Shown here: positions 7,681 through 49,586 of the stretch, one piece after another
How positions within the stretch are numbered: the stretch's first letter is position 1
How the letters are laid out: each line of letters begins with the position of its first letter
Origin: a virus
Lineage: Duplodnaviria; Heunggongvirae; Uroviricota; Caudoviricetes
Virus record (IMG/VR): IMGVR_UViG_3300008987_000001
Length of the DNA stretch: 64,000 nt
Reading direction: 5' to 3' (one strand)
Translations under genes and position numbers: made by a program
The notes under the pieces: model-generated
Told to the model about the DNA's origin: nothing
Databases searched by the model: none
What the model saw: the letters and a program-made list of their open reading frames with translations, nothing else

Positions 7681-7745
7681 TATGGTGCCCAACGGCGAAA
7701 ATGCATAGGGAGGAATCTTTTCCTTCTTTCATTTTTGTCAAGAGT
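7681..7745 (+). repeat. Intergenic structured repeat, copy A (TATGGTGCCCAAC box, hairpin GGAGGAA/TTCCTTC, T tract, TCAAGAG)
   Basis: See findings. Partial 3' copies at 8033-8056 and 8143-8166. Confidence 0.5.
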
Positions 7746-8136
7746 AAATGTAATGTCTTGCTCTATTTTTAATCGTCCCACTCTAATTCATCGTTAATTT
7801 GGAAAATCAGCCAAATGGTGAAGGCGCTGACAACCGCTGCAATTAAAAAAGATATTATCATGGCTTCAACAATCATAGTTTAGTCTTGTGTATCCATAGA
7901 ATGTTCATTGCGATAAGCAGTCCTATTTCAAAATAAAAAATGTCAGGGATCATGTTAATCTTTTAATTGTCCACCACACTATTGTTCCGGCTGCAAATCC
8001 ATAAATAAACCATTAGATGTCCATAATTAATAATTCCTCATTTTTGTCAAGAGTAAAATTGTTTTTATCGTAAATTTGTGGCCCACCATAAAATGCATAT
8101 ATACAATACTATTATGAATGCCATAAATAGTATCAT

Positions 8137-8895
8137 TTAGTAGTTCCTCACTTTTGCAAAGAAGTACTTTGGCACTTTGAATATATTGTAGTTCCAAGTA
8201 TAGTCTGACCCTTCAATGTTAAATAGAACATACCCGTTATCTGGGCGCTTTTGGCTTTTGGTCATGATATAGCCATCCATGCCTTTCCAGCACGGTGTTG
8301 TCATAGCGATGTAGTTTGGCCCACCGGCATATTTGAATGTGTGACTATGTGATTTGATGTATATATCTGCATCGTCGCCATCGAGCCTCAACTGATCAAT
8401 TGAACCAATCATACTGCTGAAGGCCCCATCATTACGGGAACTGTATGGTCCATAATGCTGCACGTTCATCTTAATGTTATCAAACAGTATGTCACCAAAG
8501 TAATCGTACCATTCTCCACGAAGCATTGTACAAACAATTTCATCAGCACTTGGGTTATCATTGGTGTGATATGTTGAGCCCTGCGTGAATATATAACGCT
8601 TCGTATTGATCATTGAAAGTAACTGCTTCGCAATATCACATTGAACCATCATGTCAGTAACGAGGATATCCTTGCCCTTACTCTTACTATTGAGACCATC
8701 TACAATATCACCATTGCAAATTACGGCATCAACTTCACCTACACTCATTACCATGTTTTCCCATTGCTCATAAAGGAATTCCTGGACTTTGGATTGTGTG
8801 AGGTGTAAATCGCGATCTGCATTATAATAATTACGTGGCAGCATACCACTTGATCCCCCACAATGCAAATCACTAACAACTAGTACTTTCTTCAT
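8137..8895 (-). CDS. Calcineurin-like metallophosphoesterase (Mre11/SbcD- or lambda-PPase-like)
   Basis: VVSDLHCG ... NGDIVDG ... GSTYHTND motif series (D.H / GD..D / GNH-like). Confidence 0.55.
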   Translation of the reverse strand: MKKVLVVSDLHCGGSSGMLPRNYYNADRDLHLTQSKVQEFLYEQWENMVMSVGEVDAVICNGDIVDGLNSKSKGKDILVTDMMVQCDIAKQLLSMINTKRYIFTQGSTYHTNDNPSADEIVCTMLRGEWYDYFGDILFDNIKMNVQHYGPYSSRNDGAFSSMIGSIDQLRLDGDDADIYIKSHSHTFKYAGGPNYIAMTTPCWKGMDGYIMTKSQKRPDNGYVLFNIEGSDYTWNYNIFKVPKYFFAKVRNY

Positions 8896-9418
8896 GAGTG
8901 ATGATACCTCATTAATATATTACCAATTAATATCACAACATCAGAATAACTAATGCAATACATCTCACACTACCTCATCATCAACAATCCATAACCACTG
9001 TATGCCATACTCTGGGAATGATGAGATTTTACCATCCTCATTGATTACTTTGAATACTGCTCTATACATGCCACCAGTGTCGGTTTCCCCAGTTGCCCAT
9101 GCATATTCAACAAGTCCTTCAGATTCACTCACTATGCTACATGGTTGATCTTCAATAGCCCATGTTTCTGCATTAACTCCACGCATAGAGAATGTAACTG
9201 ACATTCCATCGAGATCGTATGGTTCAACTCCTTGGGTATCAATGTTCCACTCTTCAATGGAATACTGCAATGGAATGGTGTCACCTTTCTTGTATCTAAT
9301 GGTAACCGTCATATTATATACAAGTGATTACATTATATATAAATGTTTAGAAAGAGATTATATATTGCAAGTAATGAATTGAGTAGTTAAAAGTTATAAT
9401 ATCAGAACAATACACTAC

Positions 9419-9949
9419 TTATTTTTTTCGTCTCTTGTTTATTCTTTTGGTCAGTGGATCCATTCCATTTAACTGTTCAATCTTGTTAATTACTTTTCGT
9501 TGTCGCGTTGGCATGTATCGCAGACGTATCATGTTATCTATGTATGTGCGAAGATTAAAGTCTGGATCTTTCTTCTTGATATCGTCGATTAACAGGCAAT
9601 AGAACTTTGCAATCCGTTCTTCATTAAAGTTGTTCTCTACTACTGCAATGGATAATCGTTTCATGTAATACTCTAGGGAGAACATTGGGAGGGTGTGCTG
9701 ATAGCGTTGATACATACGGGTCTTGAAGTCACGAAGTATCTCATAGGATAGGTACTTTTTAACTATTTCAAGTTCTTCTGGGGTAGGTTCTAATCGTGAT
9801 AATGCACGATCAATAAGAATATTTTCGTATTCTGCATATTTCCAAGGATAAAAATGTTGGTCGAGTAGTTTATTGACGAATTGTTCTGGGATGATACCTT
9901 TTGCGACCATATCATACACATATTCGTCTTTAATGTTAACCATACTCAC
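9419..9949 (-). CDS. Hypothetical protein
   Basis: 176-aa ORF in an operon-like array. No recognisable motif. Confidence 0.3.
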   Translation of the reverse strand: MSMVNIKDEYVYDMVAKGIIPEQFVNKLLDQHFYPWKYAEYENILIDRALSRLEPTPEELEIVKKYLSYEILRDFKTRMYQRYQHTLPMFSLEYYMKRLSIAVVENNFNEERIAKFYCLLIDDIKKKDPDFNLRTYIDNMIRLRYMPTRQRKVINKIEQLNGMDPLTKRINKRRKK

Positions 9950-9954
9950 GACTG

Positions 9955-16516: not shown

Positions 16517-17560
16517 TCATGTAATCGCAGTTATTACCTCACGAGCGACATGATAAAACACTTCCTTGCCATCCCACAGACCCTTAATCACCCTACTATC
16601 AACTCGAATGGATTCACCTTTACTACTAACCAATTTTGTCATACAGTGGTATCGTTCATCACGAATCATGTCACCAAGCACCTGTATAATACTTGAACAA
16701 TCACCTACCTCATGGACAATAGTAATTGACTGACCAATCAGATTCCCATTAGGATAGCCAAGCCTCATTCTCACCGCATCATTTATTGCAAGTATACTAC
16801 CTTCAAGACCCACAACAAAAATCATATCGGTCATTTTATTAAAAAGAGTGCGAAAGTTTTCACGTTCAAGATCCAACTGTTGTTGTGATGATTCAAGTGA
16901 TGAGATTGTATGCATTAAACTATCATTTGAAGTTCTCAATTCTTCTCCATGAACTTCAAGATCCATGACCTTTGCTTCTAATTCCTGCTCAACTTCGAAT
17001 CTATATAATACATGCCCGAGATGTTTTCCAAGGGTTCTTAATATATCACATACATCATCAGAGATTTCAATATCATTAAATGCCCCAATATTGATACAAC
17101 CCTTTACTGCATTATTATACAGAATTGGAACAGATATTAGTGTTTTAATACCACCGAGCAATGATGCAGTTTCCTGATACTTCTGATCATAATGCTTAAC
17201 ATAAACTGGTTTTCCAAACTGAAATAATTCACGGAGTTCCGGACGCTCTATACATATTCGATTCAACGTTTCAATAGCATGAACAGGAACAAACTTTGTT
17301 GCCACGACCTCTGCTCTACGTTCATGAATTAAGTAGATGCCCCCAATATCAAAATTGACAAAATCTATTGCTGCTTCTAGTATACCCTGAACCAACTCTT
17401 TTTGAGTCTTTGATTCATTCGCCTTGACAATAATCCCATTAAATACTTTAAGACGACGATGTTCACGAGATATAACAGAATCCTTCTCATACAATTGATG
17501 AGACAGGCTTTTTATATTATTTATTTGTTCCGCAATCGCCATCGACATTAGCAAAGACAT
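16517..17560 (-). CDS. GAF + PAS sensor-domain protein lacking an obvious output domain
   Basis: N-terminal GAF-like region and a C-terminal PAS-like segment (MTDMIFVVGLEGSILAINDAVRMRLGYPNGNLIGQSITIVHE...). Confidence 0.5.
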   Translation of the reverse strand: MSLLMSMAIAEQINNIKSLSHQLYEKDSVISREHRRLKVFNGIIVKANESKTQKELVQGILEAAIDFVNFDIGGIYLIHERRAEVVATKFVPVHAIETLNRICIERPELRELFQFGKPVYVKHYDQKYQETASLLGGIKTLISVPILYNNAVKGCINIGAFNDIEISDDVCDILRTLGKHLGHVLYRFEVEQELEAKVMDLEVHGEELRTSNDSLMHTISSLESSQQQLDLERENFRTLFNKMTDMIFVVGLEGSILAINDAVRMRLGYPNGNLIGQSITIVHEVGDCSSIIQVLGDMIRDERYHCMTKLVSSKGESIRVDSRVIKGLWDGKEVFYHVAREVITAIT

Positions 17561-17632
17561 ACCGATTTGCAGTATATAAAATGTATGGGTTCACTGTTAC
17601 ACACAATAATTATATAGAAGGAGGATCAATCT

Positions 17633-17697
17633 TATGGTGCCCAAACGGTAAGAATAACCAGGGGAAGAAATCCTTCTCCTGTTGTTTTTATCAAGCA
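17633..17697 (+). repeat. Intergenic structured repeat, copy B (TTATGGTGCCCAAACGG ... hairpin ... TTGTTTTTATCAAGCAT), antisense to both flanking genes
   Basis: See findings. Confidence 0.5.
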
Positions 17698-17758
17698 TCC
17701 AAGGTGGGCCTGTTTTAATCTGTTATTTGCGTAAAAAAAGAAAATATTAGTAGAATCA

Positions 17759-18508
17759 TTATGCTATCTGTTTTGTAACAGTTCCAATTATTTGATTTCG
17801 TTTTCTATTACAAAGTTCGGTCAACTTTTCAAATCTCTGATCGTAATTTAACCCGGCTTCTATTAATCCAGAATCCATCCGTTGTAAGTATTCAATTAAT
17901 TGAAGTTCCGTAGATGATGCAAAGTCTCTTTGGTTTCCACCAAAATCCATAGCACGCTTTCCGAATACAATTAAGTTTAACATATCCGCTTCTTCGGTAA
18001 ATGCATAGTATGGATTCTTTTTATTTGCTTCAAATTCAGGGACTATCTTTTCTTTTACGGATTCTACAAGGAATTTATATCCATTTGCTGCCATAATTCT
18101 CTGAATATCCCATGCTTCTTTCCGCTCCACTCCATTTTCATATGCTTTGATAACTTCGAGCTCAAATTCTGGAGAAAGCCACATTGCAAATTTCATTGCA
18201 ACATACTTATGTGCATATGTACCACCACCGTATCTACCACGCTTTGTTTTGATTGCTAGGTAGAACCGTCTTGGATCTAATTCCCACCTCTGGGTGGTAT
18301 TTACATCATCATGATTTAGCATAGATTCTACCACAGTTAAAAATTCTTTCGTCTGTGGAGTTTTCATCCAAACGTCAATTCTGCGTCCTGGAAAAAATGA
18401 TACCATATCATTTAAGTTGAAATATCCATCTGGATCAATGTGGATCCTATTGATAAAATTTTGATACTCAACTTGAACTTCTAGTGCTTTCTTCAAGTTC
18501 ATATACAT
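17759..18508 (-). CDS. KilA-N (APSES-type) DNA-binding domain protein
   Basis: N-terminal DPDGYFNLNDMVSFFPGRRIDVWMKTPQTKEFL resembles the KilA-N core (GY.N.. .C...G.....W......L). Confidence 0.45.
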   Translation of the reverse strand: MYMNLKKALEVQVEYQNFINRIHIDPDGYFNLNDMVSFFPGRRIDVWMKTPQTKEFLTVVESMLNHDDVNTTQRWELDPRRFYLAIKTKRGRYGGGTYAHKYVAMKFAMWLSPEFELEVIKAYENGVERKEAWDIQRIMAANGYKFLVESVKEKIVPEFEANKKNPYYAFTEEADMLNLIVFGKRAMDFGGNQRDFASSTELQLIEYLQRMDSGLIEAGLNYDQRFEKLTELCNRKRNQIIGTVTKQIA

Positions 18509-18946: not shown

Positions 18947-18994
18947 TAGGACGAATTATATCCACATATATATAAAAGTAATGTGTGTTATGAT

Positions 18995-19654: not shown

Positions 19655-22600
19655 TCAATATCGTCTGTATCCATTATTACACACCGTAAAATCTCTTGTA
19701 AATGCAAAGTAGCCTAAATTAGTTGACTTGCAAATCTTTAGGGTCATGTCCATAAGACCGCGAGGATCTGGTTTCTGCTCACCGAGGTAAATGTTGCAAA
19801 TGTTTCCACCGTCGAGTATCGGGAAGAATGCCTGCTCAATACGAATCTTTTCAGCGATTTGAATATCAGCATCTACCGGGACGTGCGTACCATTTGTATA
19901 GTAAATTGGCAAATCGCGTGATCCGGTCTCGGCATACTTTTTAATGGCAGCACGAACATCGCCTTTAACAAACTTATGAGCATCGCCATAGTTAAGTAGA
20001 TCAAGCACCGCGAACCTTTGTGCTGTCGTTTCTGCTGGAGTTCTTGAAAATGATAACTTAATATCTTGTTCGGTGGTCATTTTTTTGCAATATTTATTGA
20101 GTTCATTGCATATCTTCAATGTAAACATATGTGCTCCATTATCAGAATACAATGGTTTACCAAGCATAATCTCGCATACCTCATTCATACCAACGATTCC
20201 GATAGTGAATACGTAATCTGATAGGTCTAGGAATGGTGGAATTAATTTTCCAGTGATAGAATCTCGTTTTATATGTGTTGGAAATGGGAGCATGCCATTA
20301 TCTATACACTCGGTTATCCAACCGCGTTTAATTTTAAAAATCTCAATGGCTAATTGAATGTTTTGTTTGCACAATTCTATGAAAGTATCTATGTTACCAG
20401 TGGATTCATATGCATATCGTGGCATGTTGAGCGTTATTACCTGCGCAGAACCCATGGTAAAGTGCTTTCCATCTCTAAAGTATAGTTTGTTATCGAAATC
20501 TGGATCTCCTTCCTCGCCGCTTGAAAACGAAAATGCGCAATTCGAAGATACCATTCCTTGGGCAGTAATAAATAAATGATCTGTTACTTCTACTGGATCA
20601 TATACATCCCCATCATACGGAGATGTTTCTATCTTAACAATTGGTGATTCCCATTTACACTCTTTATTAATACACGCGAAGAAAGATTTAACTTCTTCTT
20701 GTTTATTAAGGGTTAATATATGTCTAGTTTTTCTGTTTGGTCGTTTATCTTCAACGATTGAATACTTAAAATCATATCCAAGGCTACCTGTCAATAACAA
20801 TACCCCTTCAGCTAATGGTTTTGAAATTGTATTCATTTCAATACGAAGAATTTTTGATTTTGTTCCATTCTTACGAAGGCATCCATCGCCACGATAATAT
20901 CCATTTATAAATGCCCATTTACATTTAATTGGGGCATTAAGAATGAATGTCGGAACTGTCATATCGCGACCTTTCATCGCAACACCAATTTCAATAAACC
21001 AATCATGAATCTTATTGCTGTGAATGAATACCGATGTTCCAGCACCCTTATTTACAGACTGTAATTTGGCATCATATCCAAACACATTTTTGATTATAGA
21101 AACGGTTTTATTTATTAAATCAACCTCATGTGATCCATAGCACCACATTAAATGTCTATTTGTTCCATTTGGACTGATCGTGCTACTTCCTTCTGCAGCA
21201 AATAAACCAAGTAAATAACAAAATTCAACATCATTTTGTTCTGATAAAAACTTTGGTATTTTACCATTCGTTGGTAATTCACAATTTATAAAGGCTACAT
21301 CGCCAATAGATAAATTCTTTAATTCTAATATTCCACGATTCTTTATCGGAATTTTATGATCAAATGTACCACATATTCTTCTTCCACCATCTATTTTAAT
21401 AGTATACACATATTCGTTTATATGGTGTATCATAACATGACTGAATCCATGATGTCCAGATGGTGTAACAACAACATCATCATGTTTGAGTTCTGATATT
21501 GGTATGATACGAACCATTCCATTGTCAACAATCTGAATTAACGTATCTGGTAACAACGAACACTGCATGCACGAAATGCCTTTTCCGGCCCCACGATACT
21601 GTGGAATCATGTTATCAAAATATGGGGTTCCAAATTTACTTGCTAATTGAAATGCTGAAAGATATAATTCCCGAATACTTGGGTAATCACCAGACACCCC
21701 ATGCTCATCCTCATATTCCATCTTTGCTATGTATTCGGGTTCGAACGCAATCTCTGGTTTTGGGAAGTAAAATGGTTTGCCTGCGTAATCACCTGCGAGC
21801 ATCACATCCATAAATGCCTTGAATAGCAAACGATTCTCGCGTTCGAACTCTCCATAAGTTTCTGGACCAACATTGCCCTTATAAATCGCAGGCTTGTCGT
21901 TCCACATTTCAGGTATTGAAGGCGATAACTGTACGGAACTGAAAATCTGCTGGCCGCCTCTCGAAGTAAGCATCTGCGTCATTTCAAAGATAAAACATTG
22001 CATATTCTGTTTAATTTCTTTATATGTACAATCTTTGAAATATGGTGACAAAAAGCACAGGAAATTATAGAATCCCTCGCCCCCGGCAAAGTTAACTTGC
22101 CCACTGCCTAAAGTCTTTGATGCGTGGAGTATTGCAACTTCTGGGCGCATTGCCGGTCCTGCAACTGATGTGTGCTCTCCTGTACCATCTCCTGTGAATC
22201 CATAATAAAATACATACCGTAGATCCCAATCAGCACAAAAGTATCTACTTGTGATGTATTCTAAATCATGAATGTGTAAATTACCATTAAGGTGTGCTTC
22301 AGATAAATGCTCTGGGAGCATTAAAAGTGCTTGTTCCTTTGCCAGTTGATCGGCTTTTCTTTTGTGTACGGTTTCTGGGGAACGTTGTAAATTGGCGTTA
22401 TCTCCCTTTCCACCACCAATATCAGTCATTCTCGCATCATACACTGGCATCCCAACACGAGTATATTTGCGCCGACATTCATTCATATCACGTTCTAAAA
22501 ACTTGGTATTAACAAACTCCCTAATAAGTGGGCCTGTTACTGGATCGATTTTTAGAACACTTAATGTATTATATACATCATCAACTATATCTTCAATTGC

Positions 22601-22696
22601 TTTTCCGGTGCACCCAGTTTCTTTACGCACAGAATCGATAACTTTATTTCTATCAAATGATTCAATAGATCCATCATCCTTCCTTACTCTTACCAA
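19655..22696 (-). CDS. Ribonucleotide reductase catalytic body with N-terminal ATP cone, interrupted by an intein; lacks its own glycyl-radical C-terminus (see 22923-23228)
   Basis: ATP-cone motif VRKDDGSIESFDRNKVIDSV. Extein is 672 aa after removing the 341-aa intein. A glutaredoxin and an NrdD-type GRD are encoded directly upstream on the same strand. Confidence 0.6.
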   Translation of the reverse strand: MVRVRKDDGSIESFDRNKVIDSVRKETGCTGKAIEDIVDDVYNTLSVLKIDPVTGPLIREFVNTKFLERDMNECRRKYTRVGMPVYDARMTDIGGGKGDNANLQRSPETVHKRKADQLAKEQALLMLPEHLSEAHLNGNLHIHDLEYITSRYFCADWDLRYVFYYGFTGDGTGEHTSVAGPAMRPEVAILHASKTLGSGQVNFAGGEGFYNFLCFLSPYFKDCTYKEIKQNMQCFIFEMTQMLTSRGGQQIFSSVQLSPSIPEMWNDKPAIYKGNVGPETYGEFERENRLLFKAFMDVMLAGDYAGKPFYFPKPEIAFEPEYIAKMEYEDEHGVSGDYPSIRELYLSAFQLASKFGTPYFDNMIPQYRGAGKGISCMQCSLLPDTLIQIVDNGMVRIIPISELKHDDVVVTPSGHHGFSHVMIHHINEYVYTIKIDGGRRICGTFDHKIPIKNRGILELKNLSIGDVAFINCELPTNGKIPKFLSEQNDVEFCYLLGLFAAEGSSTISPNGTNRHLMWCYGSHEVDLINKTVSIIKNVFGYDAKLQSVNKGAGTSVFIHSNKIHDWFIEIGVAMKGRDMTVPTFILNAPIKCKWAFINGYYRGDGCLRKNGTKSKILRIEMNTISKPLAEGVLLLTGSLGYDFKYSIVEDKRPNRKTRHILTLNKQEEVKSFFACINKECKWESPIVKIETSPYDGDVYDPVEVTDHLFITAQGMVSSNCAFSFSSGEEGDPDFDNKLYFRDGKHFTMGSAQVITLNMPRYAYESTGNIDTFIELCKQNIQLAIEIFKIKRGWITECIDNGMLPFPTHIKRDSITGKLIPPFLDLSDYVFTIGIVGMNEVCEIMLGKPLYSDNGAHMFTLKICNELNKYCKKMTTEQDIKLSFSRTPAETTAQRFAVLDLLNYGDAHKFVKGDVRAAIKKYAETGSRDLPIYYTNGTHVPVDADIQIAEKIRIEQAFFPILDGGNICNIYLGEQKPDPRGLMDMTLKICKSTNLGYFAFTRDFTVCNNGYRRY
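20540..21562 (-). mobile_element. Intein with LAGLIDADG homing-endonuclease domain inside the RNR gene (aa 379-719)
   Basis: N-terminal Cys (CSLLPDTLIQIVDNG block A). LAGLIDADG motifs FCYLLGLFAAEGS and KWAFINGYYRGDGC. C-terminal GMVSSN followed by +1 Cys. Confidence 0.6.
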
Positions 22697-23250: not shown

Positions 23251-23261
23251 ATATATAAGTG
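23251..23261 (-). promoter_or_regulatory. TATA-like box (CACTTATATAT in gene orientation) about 25 nt upstream of the GRD ATG
   Basis: Recurrent motif. Spacing fits an archaeal leaderless transcript. Confidence 0.4.
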
Positions 23262-23285: not shown

Positions 23286-23353
23286 ATGCTTGACAAAAGA
23301 AAAGGAAGAAGAAGATCTTCAACCTTTGTATTCTTTAGTCGGGGGGTACCATA
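23286..23353 (-). repeat. Intergenic structured repeat, copy E (between the PCNA gene and the GRD gene)
   Basis: TTATGGTACCCCCC ... GAAGATCTTC palindrome ... TTTTCTTTTGTCAAGCATG. Confidence 0.5.
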
Positions 23354-23395
23354 ATATACAATTTATCAATATATAAGGATTGTGTAGAACGAAGA

Positions 23396-32856: not shown

Positions 32857-33106
32857 ATGCTGGCGGGTTGCGTTATAATTATCTTCTTTTGTTCCAGTTG
32901 GATGGCTTACAACTTGTTTAATATTTACTATAAGTTAATCATTACTTATACTGTAACAACTAATATATACTTATAAATCAATTATATTATACCAATAGGA
33001 TATGAATGGTTGCAGCCACCCATATCAGAAGAAATAGAAACGACATACATATGTTGTCTTTTCTTCGATATAAATGTTGTGATTGTGATCCTATTGCGAG
33101 GTATAG

Positions 33107-33907: not shown

Positions 33908-34769
33908 TAAGTTATATATACTGTCAATACCAATGTTATGATCTAATTGGTGACAAGATACTTTTCAGCATCAACATTTTTCATTGGGCAGGTCACCAGG
34001 CCCAAAACAATTATGTTTAATAACATCCAAACCAAATTTTAAACTTAATATACATCCATAACAATGAACTGATCATTTTGTGCATATGCTTTCTGCACAT
34101 TTACCACGTATAAAAAAGTGGTTGCCTTAACAACAGTCATGGTCACAGAATATCATCGAGCCCTAATACTACATTTATCCGGTTTCTCAACTTGATAAGG
34201 TCATGTTTACTGATTTGAAAATTATAAGTATCGAGCCTAACGAAATATACACGTTATGAGTCTTCAGTTTCAATACTAAATACAGCACAATCAGCAGTAT
34301 TCTGGGGCCACGGATCTTCTACTAATTTAATCATTGTATCACCAGCATTCATAATTACTAATATCTTCTTCTGCTTTGCATCCTTCGCAGCATATAATTA
34401 CAACCACTCCAATACCAGTGAACCATACTTTGTAATATATCTTACCACAATGTCGTGCTTTAAATTCATCAGCACGTTGCTGTTCTATATCATTTAAATT
34501 TAATCCAGTTGACATAACATACTCCTCACGTTGTAATATTAATTAGATTTTGGATCATTTCAGCCTTTTCCCATTCATGACATAAGAATGGTGGCACTTC
34601 TGCTTCCATAAATACACATATGACTGTATTTGGTTTATCTCCCCATTCAAGGAAGTATAAACATCGCTCATCACAGTATTGTTCCATGATAAATAGTGCG
34701 TGGAAGAGTCGAACTTCCCTCAATTGGGCCAAAACCAATTATGGTTACCGATACACTAACGCACTACAG

Positions 34770-34800
34770 TCCCAATTGAAGGACTCGAACCTTCGAACCT
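34770..34800 (-). ncRNA. tRNA-like 3' fragment (T arm GAAGG-TTCGAGT-CCTTC + acceptor 3' strand) without an identifiable 5' half
   Basis: Reverse complement reads GGTTCGAAGGTTCGAGTCCTTCAATTGGGA. Confidence 0.3.
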
Positions 34801-35185
34801 ATAATGCTCGTGGGGGTTTTGATCATTGCATTATAGCACATGGTTTCACAGGGTAATACAGTGAGTAATTCACCATACACACTCCATGTGGTCAGGCCAT
34901 CTGACTTAAACTGGGTTGGTGATTTGATACACTGGTGATTTAGGTGAAACCCTTGGTGGGAATTTAACCCACATACTTGCGTCTATCACCAGTTCTGTGA
35001 CGTTGCTGCAGTATTCTTTCACATGCTTAATTACAAGGGCATGTGGATTGTCAATGTGATTCCTTGTCTATGCTCCTACGGGTGGAATCAACCCTGCGAG
35101 TCACAGCCATAGACCGCCGTATCCCGCCGAGTCGTTTCACGGGATAATTACACACTCCAACTGAATGGACTAGCGACAGTGTGGA

Positions 35186-35266
35186 TAATCGGTGCAGGAA
35201 TCGAACCTGCGACCCAATTCGGGATGACCTTTTCAGTCACGACTTTACCAATTCATCCAACCGATT
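35186..35266 (-). tRNA. tRNA-like gene, 81 nt, class-II architecture (perfect 7-bp acceptor stem AATCGGT/ACCGATT, T arm GCAGG-TTCGATT-CCTGC, variable-arm hairpin CCC-GAATT-GGG); anticodon not confidently assigned
   Basis: Hand folding of the reverse complement. Followed by a TCCA trailer. Confidence 0.5.
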
Positions 35267-35527
35267 ATTGCATTTTTTATCTGTCACTACCTAGGATAAC
35301 AGTCCTGTTATGCTTCAGGATAACCGACGGTTGGAATTGAACCAACTTTGCACCCTACTTGTCTCATCGATTACATATTATGGTGTGACCCATAAACATG
35401 TCAGACCTATCGTGGTTAGGCCAAGTTTGGTTTCGACCAACACCGTTGATCCCCTGTTTTCCTTCAGGGAGGCTTCTGGAGGTTGTTTTCACCTCTTTTA
35501 AGTTTGTTTATACCAGCCACGATCTGG

Positions 35528-35608
35528 ATGACAGCAACCGGATTCGAACCGGTGAAGGACTAACCACAGGATTTTGAGTCGTGCCTCGTTTCCACTTGAG
35601 TATACTGT
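35528..35608 (-). tRNA. tRNA, class II, probably tRNA-Leu(CAA): acceptor GACAGTA/TGCTGTC, 3-bp D stem CTC/GAG, anticodon loop CTCAAAA, T arm ACCGG-TTCGAAT-CCGGT
   Basis: Hand folding of the reverse complement. 81 nt. Followed by a TCCA trailer. Confidence 0.55.
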
Positions 35609-35827
35609 CGGGTGTTTATAATGTATTTGCATCGACATAAAGATATACATGGTTTGACCCATAGTATACCTCCCACACATTTTCGCAAACTACATATATC
35701 AGTCACAATGACATATCACTGTGCTATATACATATAAGTTGTATAGACATAAATGTGTATCGGTTACAATAGTGGTCAGGCCATGCCACAGCACCCAACC
35801 AAAAGGAGGAACTAACATGAACACCAC

Positions 35828-35900
35828 CTGCCTTGACAAAATAGAAAGGAAGAAGATCCTCCTTTCATACTATATGTCGTTTAGGGGGGTACCCAATATG
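35828..35900 (-). repeat. Intergenic structured repeat, copy G, directly upstream of the tRNA cluster
   Basis: TTGGGTACCCCCCCTAAAC ... AAAGGAGGATCTTCTTCCTTTC ... TATTTTGTCAAGGCAGG. Confidence 0.45.
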
Positions 35901-35934
35901 TATGTAGCAACTTATATATAATGGTGATGTTATA

Positions 35935-39226: not shown

Positions 39227-39282
39227 GTAACGTAATGGTTTGATGCAATTATATATAAGTGTAATGCTAAAAAAGTATGGGA

Positions 39283-41147: not shown

Positions 41148-41615
41148 CTACCGATAATCTACCCATACGCATTGAATTGGATAAATTGCATTACTAAATA
41201 CTATAATGGCACTTGGAAATGGTGCAGAGTTTGTATGACCAGAAAATTTCAGTCGTCCTTTCAAGAATCGTATCTGCGCTGCCTTGGACACATAATCAAA
41301 CCAAGAAATTGTCTCTGGTCTTGCTGGAAGTAACATAACAGATGTAACATTGTTGTTTATCCACTCATCATGGGCTTTCTGAATCCATGCTTTTGAATCA
41401 CTATATGGTGGATTTATATAGCAAGTTTCGCCAGTCCATTCTTGTATAAGCCCATTTGTTTCAGACGTATAATACTTATCACATAAATGATTAGTATCAT
41501 CCGCACATGGATCCAAGGTGAATTTAAACTCTGAATTCAATTTAGCATATAATTCTGGGGGCGTACGCCAATCCTGGGCATTACTCGTCATTAATGGTTG
41601 AAGAGTGTCCTTCAT
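41148..41615 (-). CDS. Phage-type DNA N6-adenine methyltransferase (Dam-like, NPPY motif)
   Basis: DWRTPPELYAKLNSEFKFTLDPCA ... YINPPYSD. Confidence 0.55.
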   Translation of the reverse strand: MKDTLQPLMTSNAQDWRTPPELYAKLNSEFKFTLDPCADDTNHLCDKYYTSETNGLIQEWTGETCYINPPYSDSKAWIQKAHDEWINNNVTSVMLLPARPETISWFDYVSKAAQIRFLKGRLKFSGHTNSAPFPSAIIVFSNAIYPIQCVWVDYR

Positions 41616-44007: not shown

Positions 44008-44009
44008 AC

Positions 44010-45384: not shown

Positions 45385-46330
45385 TTCTTTATTTTTCTTG
45401 GGTTACTTTAATTGGTGGTTTAACTTCTTTTGGTGACTCAACTTCTTTTTTTTCTTCCCAATTTGATGCACACCAATGATCTTGTGGAAAACCATCCCAC
45501 CATTCTGATGGATCACGTGGAATTGCCGTGCACCTAAAACGTCTTACATTTCCACCCATGAAACAGTGGATACAATTCCCACAATTTTTCTCTCTCTTAA
45601 CTACTGCCATAAGTTGCATTGCGTGAAAATTTACAATATAAAAAAGGGATGTATGCTTTTAGTATCTAGGCATTATATTAACGTATGTTCCGTTGATCCA
45701 TACGCGATGCCATTCACTGTTACTAAACCGTTTGATCTTGTTTACCATCTCATTATGTTCATGGATATCTGTAGTTTTACCTTCACGTACCCACCGATTA
45801 TCAAGATCACGCTTCTTGAATACTACAGTTCTAGTCGTATCATCATCCATTGGGGTATGAATAACAACAGTATCAACCCCAGTAATTTCAACATTATCGA
45901 GTTTCATAATAAGCACGCCTTTGTTATAATAATTACTCTTTCTGCATTAAGTAGTCTGGTAACATCTCATACAATTGGAATACATTCATGTGGTACATTT
46001 CAGCAACAGAACGAAAAGATAGGGCAAGATTTTTTAACTCAATATCGAGTTCGTTAAATCGTCCCATAGTTACATACTCACGCTGTTGTGCTTGAAGTCA
46101 TAGATTATTGCCTTTGCGATATCAATCACGCAATACATGAATACTGCTCCAACAATTGCTGACCACATACTAAATCCTTCAGCCTTGTCAATCATCGCAG
46201 CGAGAAGGATAGACATCATAATTCCTGTTCCGGACAGGATAGTTGTTAGTTCCATACAAATAATGGGTTGTATAAGTATATAATAATAGTGTATAACACA
46301 TATTATGTATCAATCTATAAAATGGTGGGT

Positions 46331-47500
46331 TTAAATGAGGCCCTTTGCACGGAGCCGTTCCATGACCTTATCATGCTCACTGTCGAATGCCTTGATAACA
46401 CCCCACAACTCATAGTATGGGACCATGATCTTGTTACCATCTTCATCGAGCACTGGATTCTTATTGTTATCGGTCTTTGCGAATGACTTCTTACATCCAA
46501 CTACAATAACATCATCACCAGTCTGAATGTTATCAGAGATGTATGCCACGGTATTCTCATAGGAACTTCCAAGGTTGATACCATTCACAACATCAACATT
46601 CCCAATACGAAGTTTGGCCTTCAGATATTTGTTCCCGCTGTATGAAGTCTGTTCATTAATGTCAACCTTCTGAACATTTCCAGAGGTAATGAACTTGGTG
46701 TACACATTCTTACGATTCCCATCAACAACCTCGATCACCGGAGTAGATACAACCTCTATGAGATCCATCCATAGATCTGTGGAAGGGAGCACTCTCATGG
46801 CCACATCATATGACTTCTGATAGATATCATTGCCTTCGTATGCATCCTTACTCACGGTAAAGTACTCACCATTTTCACGACCATACACAGTTGACTTCTT
46901 TCCAATGTCAGGATGATTTACAATCTCTTTGTCCCACGACATAGAGGCCATCTTGAACTCTGCCTTTGCATCACCATTAATTCCAGTAATGATCATTGGG
47001 ATTGAAACTTTAAATGCATCAGGGATATCCTTACCAAAGTTTGGATTTGCTTCCTCTACATTGTTTCCATCCTTGTCCTTACGCTTGATCATTGGTTCGT
47101 TATCAAGGGGGATTGGATACACATTACCATTCTTGCTGGTTGCTTCCCGAACTTTGCTAGCCTTTACTGCACCCTTTGGATCCTTCTTATATTCTTCACG
47201 AAGTTGCCATTTCTTATATGAGTTTCTATCATCTGGTGGACTGACTCCAAGGATAATTGCATTAACCGTGCTGATGAGTCCCTTTTCAGCCTGGTCCTTT
47301 GCATAAGCAAGCCCACTTAATCTAAACAGTTTTCCAATGTTATTCCCAACAATCTTCTCGACTTCAGCATCAATTTCATCTGCTTCATATATACCAGTGA
47401 GTTCAGCCTTAACTTCGGCGGCAAATTTCTCCACCTTTGCCTTGACTTCGGATGGATCTTTCTTTAGTTTTTCTGCTAATTTATCGTAATCAAATGCCAT
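46331..47500 (-). CDS. Hypothetical protein (389 aa), possibly structural or ssDNA-binding
   Basis: Long ORF with an acidic coiled N-terminus. No firm motif. Confidence 0.3.
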   Translation of the reverse strand: MAFDYDKLAEKLKKDPSEVKAKVEKFAAEVKAELTGIYEADEIDAEVEKIVGNNIGKLFRLSGLAYAKDQAEKGLISTVNAIILGVSPPDDRNSYKKWQLREEYKKDPKGAVKASKVREATSKNGNVYPIPLDNEPMIKRKDKDGNNVEEANPNFGKDIPDAFKVSIPMIITGINGDAKAEFKMASMSWDKEIVNHPDIGKKSTVYGRENGEYFTVSKDAYEGNDIYQKSYDVAMRVLPSTDLWMDLIEVVSTPVIEVVDGNRKNVYTKFITSGNVQKVDINEQTSYSGNKYLKAKLRIGNVDVVNGINLGSSYENTVAYISDNIQTGDDVIVVGCKKSFAKTDNNKNPVLDEDGNKIMVPYYELWGVIKAFDSEHDKVMERLRAKGLI

Positions 47501-47834
47501 GGTAGGTTACCTACTAGTTTTTTGTGGACCCAATAAGGTGAGTTACCATTGTATATAAGTATTGCGGGAGAATATCCGCTATTAAAATCAAAAAAGAGGT
47601 CAGGTAATTAAACCTTGTGATCAACTGCATACCAATCGCATGCTGGTCGCCGTGCTCTACATATCACCTCATGCTTATCACAATAAATAATTGGCTCTAA
47701 ATCATCATCACATGTATACAATTTCATATGCAACTCATGAGCAAACTTACATTGGTCACATACAACATCATTAAATAAGAACACATGAGTAATACCACCT
47801 ACTGTCAAAATCTTACCACTTGACATTTTTCCAC

Positions 47835-48257
47835 CTACTTATCAATCCTGATTTTGAGTCCATCTTTTTTGAGTTGTTCTGCCTGAGTTAAGGCATCATA
47901 TACTCCATTAGGATTCGGATACTCTGGGATCACATATTTACATGATCGTTTTATATAATAAGATTTGTTGTGCTTCTTATATCTGAACACCTTATGTTCC
48001 TGTAAAGTAAGGATCTCGTATAGATAGTGACGGGCCAAGTGTCGTGAAATACTGAATACATCCACAAAATCAGTAGTTTGATACACTCCATCTTCTACCC
48101 ATTCCTCGTTATAAAACTTGATAAACTTGTGATAAAGTGATGGTGCATAATGTATACAAGTTGGTTGAACTATTTCGGTAATTGCTTTGCGCTTCCTCTT
48201 GCACATATCATCTTCCCGAAATTTACATATCTCACAATTCTTTTCAGACGCACTCAT
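47835..48257 (-). CDS. Cys-rich zinc-binding protein
   Basis: CEICKF ... CIHY and further Cys/His clusters. Confidence 0.3.
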   Translation of the reverse strand: MSASEKNCEICKFREDDMCKRKRKAITEIVQPTCIHYAPSLYHKFIKFYNEEWVEDGVYQTTDFVDVFSISRHLARHYLYEILTLQEHKVFRYKKHNKSYYIKRSCKYVIPEYPNPNGVYDALTQAEQLKKDGLKIRIDK

Positions 48258-48335
48258 TATTATATAGGATGTTATTCAACTATATAAAGGTTTATATATA
48301 CACACAAATTATATATAACATTAGGAACATATCTT

Positions 48336-48403
48336 ATGGTCCCCCCAAACAACAAGAACACACCAAGGAAGATATTTTCCTTCCTTTGTTTTTGTTAAGC
48401 ATC
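48336..48403 (+). repeat. Intergenic structured repeat, copy C
   Basis: TTATGGTCCCCCCAAAC ... AAGGAAG-ATATTTTC-CTTCCTT ... TGTTTTTGTTAAGCATC. Confidence 0.5.
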
Positions 48404-49517
48404 AGGGCTGTTTTTGTTTAAGTGGTTCGCAATTTACGCAGTAATATTCGCCGGCGACAAGGTATATCCGGTCCTCGTTCGTTAATAGTCGTTTACAAGT
48501 TCGACATTTGACGAATGACAGTTTGTCCAGAACCCTCATTAATATATCAATCATTTAAGGAATTCCAATTTTATATAGGCATATTACTAACAATTATATA
48601 TCTATGCTTTTCGTTTTCGTTGTTTGATGTCACGGACCAATTTGCTGTCTATCCAGGTTTTATTGGTGTCATCTGTATAGCATTTGAATCCACGGCTGCA
48701 TACGGTGTGGAAGTAATTGCGCGACACTTCAATGCTTGGAAATTCTGAAAGGAATGCATTATATACTGCGTATTCAACGAGGTGGCGTTCTCCGAGAATT
48801 TCTGACAGATCCATCACAAAGTCGCGGATCTTAACAGACTTGTATCCTATATTGACATATTGTGAGGCTTCCTCGGCTTGCTCCCTATAAAAATCGGCTA
48901 TATTCTCCATGGTATATTATATATAGGGATAACTCTTCCATTATATAAAGTTATCGGATACCAATATATAAAGGTGTGTGAATAGTGTGTGGGTGTGAAT
49001 TGTTATGAAAGGGTTGAATTGATAAAAAAGGATATAGTCTATGTAATTATTGGCACTACATGGCACATATGATCGAGGCCCCAGCGTTTAGATCCATCAG
49101 TGTATTGGTGGACCCGTGCCTTAAATTGGATGTTGGTGCCACTCGGGGTTTCGCGCAGTAACTCTAGGGTGTTCGGGCTAACATCGGTTATATAAGCATG
49201 ATTGGTAATGATACCTTCGATATTGCTCCGAATGTTTTCGACAAGTACGAAGGTCTTGCCTTGTTTATAATGGAGGTTCCCAACTTTGCGGAATCGCCCA
49301 ACGAAGACATTTACACCCTTGAGTTCGGCCAGATTGTCCCGCCGCTTAAATGCCCGGTATTCAACCCCATGGGCCACCGATCCGCATGATGAGAGCACCC
49401 AGTTAAATAATACTCGTCCTCAAGTGTTGATTTGCCGCACTTCGTGCATTTAATGAATGGTAATTGCATAATAGATATAGGGCGGCCACGGATATAAATG
49501 CTACGATATACAATTGA

Positions 49518-49586
49518 GTGCTTGATAAAACAAAGGGAAGGAAGAAGATCCTTACCCATTCGTTCTACTTTGTTGGCACAGTTATA
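49518..49586 (-). repeat. Intergenic structured repeat, copy F (the overlapping ORF 49311-49559 is probably spurious)
   Basis: CTGTGCCAACAAAG ... GGGTAAGGATCTTCTTCCTTCCC ... TTTGTTTTATCAAGCACTC. Confidence 0.45.

Follow-up and report, generated by a model that had tools for sequence, protein, structure and literature searches.

Intergenic promoter-hairpin repeats of an apparently archaeal virus as a predicted family of small RNA genes

The intergenic repeats of an uncultivated, apparently archaeal virus are best read as a co-regulated family of predicted small virus-encoded RNA genes. From the promoter, start-site box, and hairpin of each copy, we put at about even the chance that each repeat works as a small autonomous transcription unit. 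Our analysis covered a 64,000-nucleotide stretch of viral DNA (the window) and eight related metagenome contigs (L002, L003, L006–L010, and L012). The original prediction of an intergenic structured repeat family was borne out; of the three roles it offered, an sRNA family fits best, and neither the bidirectional terminator nor the miniature mobile element is supported.

Members of the repeat family

An nhmmer profile built from seven copies recovered exactly the same seven in the window (E 2e-24 to 3.7e-20), with no further match at E 0.003 or better. A covariance-model search, proposed earlier as a check, likewise returned only these seven matches in the window, all on the sense strand (28.8–65.8 bits); its single antisense match in the window within E ≤ 1 was copy B (16.9 bits). 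Both searches thus confirm the predicted coordinates and strands of the seven full copies. No Rfam family matched the repeats. The copies and two shorter candidates are as follows.

Copy A, 7647–7770, plus strand: full unit (nhmmer E 2e-24; covariance model 59.5 bits); TATA box 7658–7664; 5′ box TATGGTGCCCAAC 7681–7693; hairpin 7694–7739; TTTTTGTCAAG 7732–7742; second T tract 7766–7770; fold of 7687–7742 with minimum free energy −20.9 kcal/mol, z −4.46; at a convergent junction, following a plus-strand gene block that ends at 7631.
Copy B, 17597–17716, plus strand: full unit (E 4.7e-24; 62.3 bits; z −5.86); TATA box 17610–17616; 5′ box 17633–17646; hairpin 17647–17692; TTTTTATCAAG 17685–17695; GGTGGGCC; second T tract 17713–17716; antisense to both flanking genes, 16517–17560 and 17759–18508 (both minus strand).
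Copy C, 32750–32890, plus strand: full unit (E 1e-20; 56.4 bits; z −5.30); TATA box 32764–32771; 5′ box TATAGTCCCCCCAAAAC from 32788; hairpin 32806–32849; TTTTTTGTTAAG 32843–32854; second T tract 32887–32890; at a divergent junction, with a Bro-N gene (33107–33907, plus strand) ~240 nt downstream.
Copy D, 48298–48415, plus strand: full unit (E 9e-23; 65.8 bits; z −5.76); TATA box 48309–48315; 5′ box TATGGTCCCCCCAAAC from 48335; hairpin 48352–48395; TTTTTGTTAAG 48389–48399; second T tract 48411–48415; antisense to both neighbors, its 3′ flank overlapping the end of a small Zn-ribbon ORF (48402–48554, minus strand).
Copy E, 23289–23391, minus strand: full unit lacking the second T tract (E 4.6e-23; 28.8 bits; z −4.05); TATA box 23370–23376; 5′ box 23341–23353; hairpin 23292–23340; TTTTGTCAAG 23289–23298; co-oriented with both neighbors, the downstream gene having its own TTATATA at 23252–23258.
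Copy F, 35801–35934, minus strand: full unit (E 3.7e-20; 29.2 bits; z −3.96); TATA box 35915–35921; 5′ box ATTGGGTACCCCCC 35884–35897; hairpin 35835–35878; TTTTGTCAAG 35832–35841; second T tract 35801–35804; at a divergent junction, with the tRNA cluster 34693–35609 (minus strand) downstream.
Copy G, 49521–49620, minus strand: full unit lacking the second T tract (E 1.9e-22; 49.2 bits; z −5.09); TATA box 49600–49606; 5′ box variant AACTGTGCCAACAAA 49569–49583; hairpin 49525–49568; TTTTATCAAG 49521–49530; co-oriented with both neighbors, the downstream small Zn-ribbon gene having its own TTTATAT box.
8033–8056, plus strand: possible 5′-truncated remnant (3′ arm, T tract, GTCAAG).
8143–8166, plus strand: not a copy but the 3′ end of the coding sequence of the phosphoesterase gene 8137–8895 (minus strand).

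The last two had been described as partial copies, and only the first is a plausible remnant. Its nhmmer match is weak (E 1.1, not significant alone), copy A has the same CATTTTTGTCAAGAGTAAA at its 3′ end, and the candidate lies inside a ~170 bp stretch (~7925–8095) missing from the orthologous contig L003. The second was reported in the window by neither nhmmer nor the covariance model and was rejected, as it aligns with conserved coding sequence of the orthologous L003 gene.

The window and its eight relatives, whose polB is 43–100% identical, hold 25 copies, seven of them in the window. We aligned and folded 24 for the promoter and strand comparisons, and 21 entered the covariance-model alignment. 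Identity among copies averages 56% (range 39–77%), and several are syntenic in relatives with polB 48–72% identical, at sites following polB, preceding nrdD, and closing the structural block. Copy A is orthologous to L003:10976–10863, and copy F is positionally equivalent to the polB-proximal copies of L006–L010; in L006, L007, L009, and L010, a copy begins a few to ~70 nt from the polB stop codon in sense orientation.

Promoter, architecture, and fold

TATA-like boxes in the window peak sharply 25–27 nt before the ATG of ~30 ORFs, and are taken as archaeal TATA promoters of leaderless mRNAs; bacterial sigma-70-type sites show no enrichment in the window (97 found versus 102.5 expected). Among isolates, the polB of the window is closest to the haloferacalesvirus group, including halovirus HF2 (24% identity). 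The relatives' contigs fall into one archaeal and three bacterial MAGs, which weighs against small RNA genes of an archaeal virus. All 24 aligned copies have a TTATATA-type box like that before the ATG of window genes, and its position relative to the 5′ box, which it precedes, is nearly constant. The distance from the TATA box to the N of GGTNCCC is 22 nt in copies A, B, E, and G and 23–25 nt in C, D, and F; in a methanogen, mapped start sites lie ~19–22 nt from BRE and TATA boxes (PMC5378194). Since the TATA-to-5′ box distance equals the TATA-to-start-codon distance of the virus genes, the 5′ box (TATGGT|N CCCC(C) AAAC) spans the predicted start site. The archaeal-type promoter on every copy and the archaeal look of the virus had both been overlooked in the earlier reading.

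The ordered parts described originally are real, but the unit is larger. It begins ~35 nt upstream of the start given before, with an A/C-rich, ACACAA-like stretch and the TTATATA box. The supposed variable spacer and T-rich run are not separate parts; they form the lower 5′ and 3′ strands of a single long imperfect hairpin of ~20 bp that takes in spacer, hairpin, and T tract together. Purines dominate its 5′ arm and pyrimidines its 3′ arm, at whose end TTTT(T)GT is invariant; no part of the unit varies less than the T tract. The closing pairs of the hairpin involve bases 1–3 of the 3′ box (G/A-T-C/T), which covary with the CGG/CGA/CAA that ends the 5′ box. In most copies, a G-rich segment follows, with another T tract 20–35 nt downstream. 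In copies E and G, which lack this second tract, the TATA box of the next gene comes directly after, and read-through would enter that gene.

Each of the seven window hairpins outperforms its dinucleotide shuffles (z −3.96 to −5.86, with none of 200 shuffles as good), and the first 7–12 nt stay unpaired in the minimum-free-energy folds. With an unbiased midpoint split, cognate arms pair at −16.4 kcal/mol versus −11.5 for non-cognate arms, and the lower stem alone at −6.75 versus −4.76; none of 20,000 permutations equaled either value. In the covariance-model alignment of 21 copies, which was itself fitted to the structure, 81% of cells pair versus 76.7% after shuffling (0/500), the purine/pyrimidine bias of the arms leaving shuffled partners still 77% paired. 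The same alignment contains 12 double-change pairs versus 7.5 expected (2/500) and a covariation score of 0.401 versus 0.324 for shuffled partners (0/500), and slid registers all pair less (59–71%). The compensatory stem changes claimed earlier are thus upheld by arm-swap permutations and alignment alike. A further helix closing the 5′ and 3′ ends, between the C-box and the downstream G-rich segment, is weakly supported (−7.6 versus −6.8 kcal/mol, p ~0.03), and several copies lack it.

In 24 of 24 copies, the promoter-side strand gives the better fold (mean −18.6 versus −11.0 kcal/mol), so the hairpin is strand-specific, which points to RNA. Sense-strand covariance-model scores likewise far exceed antisense ones. 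This asymmetry speaks against the DNA cruciform and the bidirectional terminator that had been entertained.

For the small RNA genes proposed here, host RNA polymerase with TBP/TFB would start at or beside the N of the 5′ box. In the resulting RNA, a C-rich 5′ tail (NCCCC(C)AAAC) would be left free ahead of a long hairpin rich in G.U pairs, and a stop at the first or second oligo-T tract would give RNAs of ~50 nt and/or 80–95 nt. The predicted stop site is uncertain because the T tract is base-paired within the hairpin and, to our knowledge, a role for hairpins in archaeal termination is not established. The start-site box is common to all copies and essentially exclusive to them, and all copies are therefore probably switched on and off together by one factor binding it. 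Most speculatively, the RNAs may work in trans, either by using the single-stranded C-rich tail as a seed that targets G-rich sequences (such as GUUUGGGG or ribosome-binding sites) or by serving as U-tailed decoys or hairpins that bind proteins. Matches to the complement of the tail (GTTTGGGGG, ≤1 mismatch) are no commoner in the window than expected (7 versus 7.3), and most of them are the elements themselves.

A regulated leader or attenuator is an improbable alternative. Four segments (the 5′ box with its C-rich sequence, the two hairpin arms, purine then pyrimidine, and the G-rich stretch after them) would pair alternatively (1:2 and 3:4 versus 2:3), deciding between a stop at the T tract and reading on into downstream genes or antisense RNA. 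Most copies keep these four segments in this order, the T tract lying with the pyrimidine-rich one, copies E, G, C, and F face downstream genes or tRNAs, and the second T tract is missing from E and G. Against this, A, B, and D have no downstream gene in their own orientation, the 5′ tail is unpaired in the minimum-free-energy folds, several copies lack the G-rich segment, and we know of no established hairpin-controlled termination in archaea.

Genomic placement and competing explanations

Copy orientation is independent of the adjacent genes, the 24 copies spanning tandem-sense, tandem-antisense, convergent, and divergent junctions. The earlier placement of most copies immediately upstream of a same-orientation gene or the tRNA cluster is not supported, holding for only four of the seven in the window (E, G, C, and F); copy B is indeed antisense to both neighbors but is not the sole case, as D is too. 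At divergent junctions, there is no incoming transcript for an element to terminate.

It is possible, with a probability well short of even, that the repeats are instead cis-acting transcriptional punctuation, in which hairpin and T tracts terminate or insulate sense transcription, the promoter restarts or interferes, and a short RNA is a by-product. Every copy lies between transcription units, copy A ends a plus-strand gene block, the copies of L006, L007, L009, and L010 sit just past the polB stop codon in sense, invariance is highest in the T tract, and a simple terminator scan ranks copies B, C, and F as the best sites. Such a cassette might, with the same limited probability, be functionally like the PeSLs of T4-like phages or the promoter-bearing HF2 intergenic repeats, which are precedents (PMC2839356, PMC8707807). 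However, about 10 of the 24 copies are antisense to both neighbors or divergent, with no sense transcript to stop, and the strand-specific structure does not make a bidirectional terminator. The precisely spaced promoter and conserved start-site box of every copy are also left unexplained. At E and G, the two copies checked for this, the downstream genes carry separate TATA boxes, and the element is thus not needed there as their promoter.

We consider it unlikely that the repeats are DNA recombination or boundary sites, with inward-facing pairs bracketing exchangeable or invertible cassettes and driving modular shuffling as proposed for PeSLs. In the window and L006–L010, a polB-adjacent cassette of 1.5–5.9 kb with varying contents lies between a convergent pair, and the Bro-N/P22_AR_N gene is inverted relative to polB between window/L008/L010 and L009/L007 with collinear flanks. 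The ~170 bp indel with the truncated copy adjoins copy A, and orientations along the window run + + − + − + −. Because the sites are syntenic, however, this pattern counts as a single evolutionary observation. Pair members are no more alike than other copies (39–77%) and bear no mark of gene conversion or recent exchange. No recombinase turned up among 40 ORFs scanned against Pfam, and the strand-specific G.U pairing and compensatory changes suggest selection on RNA rather than duplex DNA. The inward-facing pairs around variable cassettes do hint at a DNA-level role.

A relic MITE-like element, a replication-origin R-loop primer site, and a short leaderless peptide gene (MVP...) are together highly improbable. 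In their favor, copies are dispersed in both orientations. Terminal inverted repeats and target-site duplications, the latter an earlier proposed check, were absent around the copies beyond chance matches of ≤6 nt; the copies are also old, divergent, and syntenic, and a recent mobile element was rejected. The predicted transcript is purine-rich behind its promoter, which resembles T4 or T7 origin-type promoters, but at least seven origins in 64 kb are implausible and would not need a covarying RNA hairpin. ATG GTN CCC occurs in four of the seven window copies; C, F, and G lack the ATG, the position of the stop varies (codons 5–20), and TATGTGCCC in place of TATGGTGCCC in relatives is a 1-nt indel in the box that breaks the frame. 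The peptide gene was rejected, in line with the original view, as was a CRISPR repeat, the copies being scattered 1–10 kb apart.

Comparison with known systems

RybB and OmrA/B of enterobacteria and RsaE/RoxS, with its C-rich seed, are trans-acting sRNAs with a 5′ seed, terminator hairpin, and U tail. The predicted RNAs share with them an unpaired C-rich 5′ tail, a hairpin with a U run, their own promoter, and an intergenic location. Those sRNAs are bacterial, single- or few-copy, and Hfq-linked, whereas here at least seven paralogues encoding predicted RNAs occur in 64 kb of an archaeal-type virus.

Intrinsic terminators combine a hairpin with a U-tract, including bidirectional A-tract/U-tract forms, and archaea have oligo-T terminators. 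The repeats resemble them in joining a hairpin to a T4–6 run, with an A-rich 5′ flank that pairs with it and a further T tract downstream. Unlike these terminators, they have a purine/pyrimidine-asymmetric, G.U-rich, strand-specific stem, a promoter ~35 nt upstream in each copy, and conserved boxes on both sides, and many are placed where no transcript needs stopping.

Class I/II intergenic repeats occur in halovirus HF2 and other haloferacalesviruses (Russ, Pfeiffer & Dyall-Smith 2021, PMC8707807). These too are intergenic units of an archaeal tailed virus with a TATA promoter (functional in HF2), extra start-site motifs, and positions conserved among related viruses, and binding by virus-encoded regulators has been proposed for them (PMC8707807). 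The HF2 units differ in being 58 or 29 bp, in driving long mRNAs, and in having no long hairpin/T-tract module; their beta, gamma, and class II motifs are absent at the elements here, and there is no sequence relationship.

The promoter-early stem-loop (PeSL) cassettes of T4-like phages (Arbiol et al. 2010, PMC2839356; Comeau et al. 2014, PMC4122927) are likewise multi-copy intergenic cassettes of ~70–100 bp in a large virus genome. Each joins a consensus promoter of the host type to a stem-loop able to terminate transcription; they are tied to variable gene cassettes, and G-T pairs have been noted in their stems. Their promoter is of the sigma-70 −35/−10 type with the stem-loop within or around it, and they end in the Shine-Dalgarno sequence and ATG of the driven gene, with which they are always co-oriented. 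The units here instead have an archaeal TATA promoter, a hairpin wholly past the predicted start followed by T tracts, an orientation independent of their neighbors, and a unique start-site box.

Upstream region of the repeats and the virus that carries them

A profile built from the seven repeat copies (A to D on the plus strand, E to G on the minus strand) with 40 nt of upstream flank returned exactly seven sites in the 64-kb window, at E-values of 2e-24 to 3.7e-20, with the next match at E 0.003. The family is therefore real, far beyond chance, and the seven sites of the original prediction came back with nothing else. Their alignment shows the parts in the proposed order within the proposed intervals, but the unit itself starts earlier, with conservation beginning ~35 nt further upstream.

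This upstream part consists of an A/C-rich ACACAA-like stretch, TTATATA, 16–19 variable nt ending AT-rich, and then the 5′ box, TATGGT-N-CCCC(C)AAAC. A TATA-type box is near-constant before the 5′ box in 24/24 aligned copies from the window and its relatives; in the lone copy of the related contig L012, GTTTAAATA lies 17 nt ahead of GTATGT. A TATA box joined to the 5′ box is a feature restricted essentially to the elements.

TATA-like boxes also precede genes of the virus, with a sharp positional peak 25–27 nt before the ATG of ~30 ORFs across the whole window. Examples of TTATATA gene promoters are as follows.

48281–48287, minus strand, TTATATA
46277–46283, minus strand, TTATATA
39252–39258, minus strand, TTATATA
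18969–18975, minus strand, TTATATA

Archaeal TATA promoters of leaderless mRNAs have this geometry; mapped start sites of a methanogen lie ~19–22 nt from BRE and TATA boxes (PMC5378194). From the end of TTATATA to the N of GGTNCCC, the repeats measure 22 nt in A, B, E, and G and 23–25 nt in C, D, and F, matching the box-to-start-codon spacing of the virus's genes. Because of this gene-like spacing, the predicted transcription start is placed at N, a purine in five of the seven window copies, or at a neighboring nucleotide. The 5′ box would span this start, with TATGGT upstream and NCCCC(C)AAAC on the predicted transcript.

A promoter at 47518–47567 (minus strand), ahead of a 389-aa gene at 46331–47500 (minus strand), has TTATATA, 17 nt, and then ATTGGGTCCACAAAAAAC, which resembles the family 5′ box. 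A short GTAGG/CCTAC hairpin and the ATG follow, without the family hairpin. Judged by this resemblance, the same control box may act here on a protein-coding gene.

The window is virus-like by gene content. The plus strand up to 7.6 kb holds tail-like genes, and the long minus-strand block after it encodes a family-B DNA polymerase, NrdD with a LAGLIDADG intein, thymidylate synthase, dCMP deaminase, a Dam methylase, an ERCC4 nuclease, KilA-N and Bro-N proteins, NAMPT, dTDP-rhamnose enzymes, glycosyltransferases, and three tRNAs. Megablast of 8 kb of the window found no close relatives among sequenced phages; among isolates, the polymerase protein is nearest to those of the haloarchaeal HF1/HF2/HRTV viruses, at 24% identity.

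The virus seems to rely on promoters of archaeal type, with first genes that are mostly leaderless. Internal genes have GGTG/GGAGG-type ribosome-binding sites, which also tend to occur at genes that lack such a TATA box. The window shows no enrichment of sigma-70-type sites (97 found vs 102.5 expected). An antisense bacterial promoter, with CTTGACA as a −35-like box and ATGCTTGA resembling a T4 MotA box, was rejected, as no −10 box was present at any spacing. For the viral RmlC, nearly all of the closest homologues with a name come from archaea (Thermococcales, Methanococcales, Thermofilum, Nitrososphaeria), at 44–48% identity.

Contigs of relatives (L014–L017) fall into public MAG bins assigned to Methanospirillum, Saccharibacteria, Syntrophaceae, and Patescibacteria. 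These bins, one Methanospirillum and three bacterial, contradict one another, so that host assignment by binning was set aside; at least some of them probably hold wrongly assigned viral contigs. Several of the features above point to an archaeal virus; because relatives fall in three bacterial MAGs as well as in Methanospirillum, we rate this as likely.

Several other features of the genome deserve mention. The anaerobic ribonucleotide reductase gene nrdD (19655–22696, minus strand) is split by its intein, which bears a LAGLIDADG homing-endonuclease domain; several relatives have inteins in polB instead (proteins of 930–1170 aa). At 58111–62123 (minus strand), NAMPT (60220–61599), a cytidylyltransferase-like protein (58111–59127) that may be an NMN adenylyltransferase, and DUF5662 (61596–62123) lie together in what looks like an NAD-salvage module; the NAMPT–DUF5662 pair is adjacent in L007 too. 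A sugar-modification block at 26261–31921 contains RmlD- and RmlC-like enzymes, GT1 and GT2 glycosyltransferases, a radical-SAM/SPASM protein, and two methyltransferases.

Folding of the hairpin and tests for selection on its stem

The original prediction had treated a variable spacer, a hairpin, and a T-rich run as separate parts. Their order holds, but by folding all three form one long imperfect hairpin. Its 5′ arm is rich in A/G and pairs with a 3′ arm rich in C/U that ends in an invariant TTTT(T)(G/A)T. The closing pairs are formed by the G/A-T-C/T of the 3′ box.

Copy A, closing pairs GGCGAAAAUG/CAUUUUUGUC
Copy B, closing pairs GGUAAGAAUAAC/GUUGUUUUUAUC
Copy D, closing pairs AACAAGAACA/UGUUUUUGUU

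The seven window hairpins have minimum free energies of −16.3 to −23.4 kcal/mol (z −3.96 to −5.86), with 0/200 dinucleotide shuffles as good, and the C-rich tail (first 7–12 nt) is unpaired in all seven folds. TTTT(T)(G/A)T closes the 3′ side of the stem in 24/24 copies. All 24 carry a stem-loop with at least four T on the sense strand, and so classify as predicted hairpin and U-tract terminators; B, C, and F are the top matches of a terminator scan of the window.

Most copies continue with a sequence resembling (C/G)A(U)GAU, followed by a G-rich segment (GGTGGGCC, GTGGGG, GTGAGGG) and a further T tract (CTNTTTTA). Neither E nor G has these downstream parts; the next gene's own TATA box comes there instead. 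The G-rich segment is able to pair with the C-rich 5′ box, and in the copy at L009:22162 both sides have changed (GCAGCACAAC/GTTGTGCAGC). Across copies, this outer helix is absent in several and gives −7.6 kcal/mol for cognate vs −6.8 kcal/mol for non-cognate partners, a marginal difference (p ~0.03), and we do not regard it as a family-wide feature, apart from striking single cases such as L009:22162.

GATC occurs at or beside the hairpin apex in 12/21 aligned copies, often as GAAGATCTTC (for example, 23313–23322, 32826–32829, 35856–35859, and 49546–49549). The virus has a gene for a Dam-type N6-adenine methyltransferase at 41148–41615 (minus strand).

With plain MAFFT alignments as input, RNAalifold recovered either no structure or just the apical helix, because the hairpin arms were misregistered in these alignments. 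For this reason we used an alignment-free arm swap and a covariance-model alignment. In the arm swap, the hairpin region was halved at its midpoint and each 5′ half was paired with each 3′ half. Cognate halves average −16.4 kcal/mol vs −11.5 kcal/mol for non-cognate halves, and 0/20,000 permutations reach the cognate mean. The lower stem alone, without the conserved GGAAGATCTTCC-like apex, gives −6.75 vs −4.76 kcal/mol (0/20,000), and the result is unchanged with arms taken from each copy's own MFE fold. Compared with shuffled alignments, the covariance-model alignment shows more compensatory change in the stem, and all six slid registers are clearly worse (59–71% paired, scores 0.16–0.25).

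Table. Covariation in the covariance-model alignment of 21 copies compared with 500 shuffles; the alignment is fitted to the model, and purine/pyrimidine bias raises the shuffled background.
Standard-pair cells: 81.0% observed; 76.7% shuffled; 0/500 shuffles as high
Pairs changed on both sides: 12/20 observed; 7.5 shuffled; 2/500 as high
Covariation score: 0.401 observed; 0.324 shuffled; 0/500 as high

The hairpin is also strand-specific. In 24/24 copies, the stabler hairpin forms on the strand predicted to be read from the element's TATA box (mean −18.6 vs −11.0 kcal/mol). Many stem pairs are G·U and become C·A on the opposite strand, and antisense scores in the covariance model are much lower (for example copy B, 62.3 bits sense vs 16.9 bits antisense). 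The strand-specific stability, the G·U pairs, and the low antisense scores speak for an RNA transcribed from the promoter within the element and against a cruciform in duplex DNA or a symmetric bidirectional terminator. Of the two structures first proposed, RNA or DNA cruciform, these data favor the former, and they do not favor the suggested bidirectional terminator.

Known identities were also considered. A conserved short peptide (MVP...) is excluded, in line with the original view, because the ATG is lost in three of the seven copies (C, F, and G), the 5′ box differs by a 1-nt indel between relatives (GTATGTGCCC or TAGGGTACCCC there, against TATGGTGCCC), and stops fall at variable positions. 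With Rfam release 15, only the three tRNAs of the window reach the gathering threshold, and at E ≤ 5 the two further, chance matches are not at the elements. An archaeal box C/D sRNA (k-turn) would have a C box RUGAUGA close to its 5′ end and a D box CUGA close to its 3′ end, with a terminal stem closing the two. It was rejected, as no conserved CUGA partner is present and C/D family matches are absent at the elements; a sequence resembling (R)UGAUGR comes after the 3′ box in E, L7a, L9a, L10b, and L10c, but it lies 3′ of the hairpin and is not universal.

Conservation and gene context

A strict pattern of TATA box, 5′ box, T tract, and 3′ box had no match in IMG/VR or the genome collection, and the polB peptides likewise had none in IMG/VR. 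The pattern did match five metagenome contigs, two of which hold true members (one copy in L002 and two in L003); in L001, L004, and L005 (25–28% GC) the matches are due to chance. Further contigs were found via polymerase homologues and then searched with the profile and the covariance model. A covariance-model search of the full genome and its relatives had been proposed with the original prediction; run on the window and the relatives' contigs, it yielded family members in the latter, and the total, with the window, is 25 copies.

Table. polB identity to the window and number of family copies in contigs found through the polymerase.
L006: 72%; 3 copies
L007: 60%; 2 copies
L008: 53%; 2 copies
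L009: 53%; 4 copies
L010: 48%; 3 copies
L012: 43%; 1 copy
L013: 41%; 0 copies by profile and covariance model

Several positions are shared as well. A copy lies directly after polB in L006, L007, L009, and L010, and two small genes later in L008 and in the window (F); just upstream of nrdD in L006, L009, L010, and the window (E); and at the close of the structural block in L003 and the window (A). Copy-to-copy identity is 39–77% (mean 56.5%). The copies are old and held by selection, not recently spread.

The suggestion of a miniature mobile element does not survive this comparison. Target-site duplications were looked for, and direct or inverted matches between boundary windows are no longer than 6 nt; no terminal inverted repeats were seen, mean identity is 56%, and sites are syntenic between genomes with polB 48–72% identical. 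There is likewise little support for a replication origin. A CRISPR repeat was correctly dismissed at the outset, and a mini-array or solitary repeat unit is likewise disfavored: window copies lie 1–10 kb apart on both strands, are 39–77% identical, and have covarying stems. A link to tRNA genes was rejected, as the relatives' loci contain no tRNAs near any copy. One of the window's tRNAs (35182–35267, minus strand; 86 nt; Rfam tRNA 39.7 bits) has an unusual length and anticodon, Phe AAA by ARAGORN, possibly reflecting an intron or a miscalled anticodon.

With respect to neighboring genes, E and G have the same orientation as both neighbors, B and D are antisense to both, A lies at a convergent junction, and C and F lie at divergent junctions; all four junction types occur in similar numbers among the 24 copies. 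A, B, and D have no downstream gene in their own orientation. Since each gene that follows E or G carries a TATA box of its own at the usual distance, the element is not simply the promoter of the next gene. Small CxxC...CxxC zinc-ribbon proteins adjoin D (48402–48554, minus strand), G (49311–49469, minus strand), and E (~23232, downstream). That after E (MFKCQTCK...) has a counterpart before nrdD in L009 at ~22290 (MFKCSGCK...). They are candidate nucleic-acid-binding partners.

These contexts bear on whether the repeat is a cis-acting punctuation cassette. Copies right after polB or closing a structural block would suit such a role, as would the invariant T tract, but at divergent and antisense sites the element cannot terminate a neighbor. 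The explanation fails in ~10/24 contexts and leaves the promoter and the strand specificity unaccounted for, and we consider it unlikely. An attenuator has little support.

Next to polB, six related genomes each have a 1.5–5.9 kb cassette of differing content between two elements that face inward as a convergent pair.

Window, 32750–35934, convergent pair C/F
L006, 12301–13959, convergent pair
L007, 12371–18504, convergent pair
L008, 12599–15390, convergent pair
L009, 12362–14120, convergent pair
L010, 12367–14483, convergent pair

A Bro-N/P22_AR_N-type gene of the cassette is inverted relative to polB between the window, L008, and L010 on the one hand and L009 and L007 on the other, with collinear flanks. 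These differences may reflect inversion or exchange between the inverted elements. In the window, B/E and D/G are convergent pairs too. Beside A, a ~170-bp stretch (7925–8095) is absent from the orthologous contig L003 and holds a 5′-truncated copy (8033–8056); small hydrophobic minus-strand ORFs lie in this region (7873–7953 and 8065–8136), and an adjoining 35-aa membrane-type ORF (7769–7876, minus strand) is kept in L003. In the T4-like cassettes discussed below, insertions, deletions, and replacements between close relatives fall at the cassettes; here the comparison shows the variable, partly inverted cassette and the indel near A, in relatives too distant for crossovers to be mapped. A recombination role at the DNA level would draw on the inward-facing pairs, the inverted gene, and the indel with its truncated copy, but members of a pair are no more alike than other copies, and we think such a role quite improbable.

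A proposed small transcription unit and its closest known counterparts

We put at about an even chance that each repeat is a small autonomous transcription unit producing a hairpin RNA; in this small-RNA-gene reading, we infer the steps from sequence to RNA. The archaeal promoter would start transcription at or beside N, and the box common to all start sites would be a likely shared control point. The product would be a ~50-nt hairpin RNA with a free C-rich 5′ tail, ended by one or two oligo-T stops, which might act downstream as a trans-acting seed, a protein-binding RNA, or a decoy. A search of the window for targets of this tail found none.

More tentatively, the units could form a regulon of at least seven paralogous small RNA genes per half-genome in a clade of large uncultivated archaeal tailed viruses, each with its own TATA promoter, a shared operator-like start-site box, a conserved single-stranded C-rich 5′ seed, and a long G·U-rich hairpin. 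Such a regulon, which we regard as possible but doubtful, could have roles in host takeover, timing of the infection program, or counter-defense. It would also be the first multi-copy family of trans-acting sRNAs (or RNA decoys) that we know of in archaeal viruses. We know of almost nothing on RNA-level regulation in these viruses beyond a few haloarchaeal and Sulfolobales models.

The conserved, covarying, multi-copy family with its built-in promoter supplies a 25-member seed alignment for a new RNA family. It also makes a prediction open to direct test, with 5′ ends falling at GGT|N and small RNAs 50–95 nt long. The family further marks a clade of ~130-kb viruses in metagenomes of wastewater, digester, and sediment type. 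Should the RNAs prove trans-acting, they would open virus-encoded riboregulators in archaea to study.

In the literature on intergenic, non-coding, or stem-loop elements of archaeal viruses, we found nothing resembling the element. The intergenic repeats of haloferacalesviruses (HF2 repeats) combine an archaeal promoter with extra motifs at conserved positions (PMC8707807). The present elements share the archaeal-type promoter, extra motifs, and positional conservation, but the HF2 repeats have no hairpin or T-tract module. The HF2 alpha, beta, and gamma motifs (e.g., TCTTTAAGTC and CGTCTNNTAGAG) and the class II motif CCCTTTAC are absent at all elements, and their few window matches lie elsewhere. 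HF2-type repeats contain an active archaeal promoter, TATA box and start site included, for the genes downstream. Here a TATA box at the correct spacing predicts a promoter in all copies; that it drives downstream genes is contradicted for A, B, and D.

The closest known system in concept is the promoter-early stem-loop (PeSL) cassette of T4-like phages. PeSLs have a strong sigma-70-like −35/−10 early promoter with an AT-rich upstream region, a stem-loop in or overlapping the promoter, and a 3′ end formed by the Shine-Dalgarno sequence and start codon of the driven gene (PMC2839356). In contrast, sigma-70 sites have no consistent place in our units, which have TTATATA ~22 nt before the predicted start; the hairpin lies wholly downstream of that start and is followed by the T tracts. 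Coupling to a downstream gene and orientation dependence differ as well, with A, B, and D lacking such a gene and E and G being followed by a separate promoter. Should the units prove cis-acting, the PeSL/HF2-repeat concept, in which promoter/terminator modules organize viral genomes and shuffle them, would gain a new promoter type and virus lineage. We regard the element as a form of virus intergenic promoter/stem-loop cassette or, alternatively, a new sRNA family.
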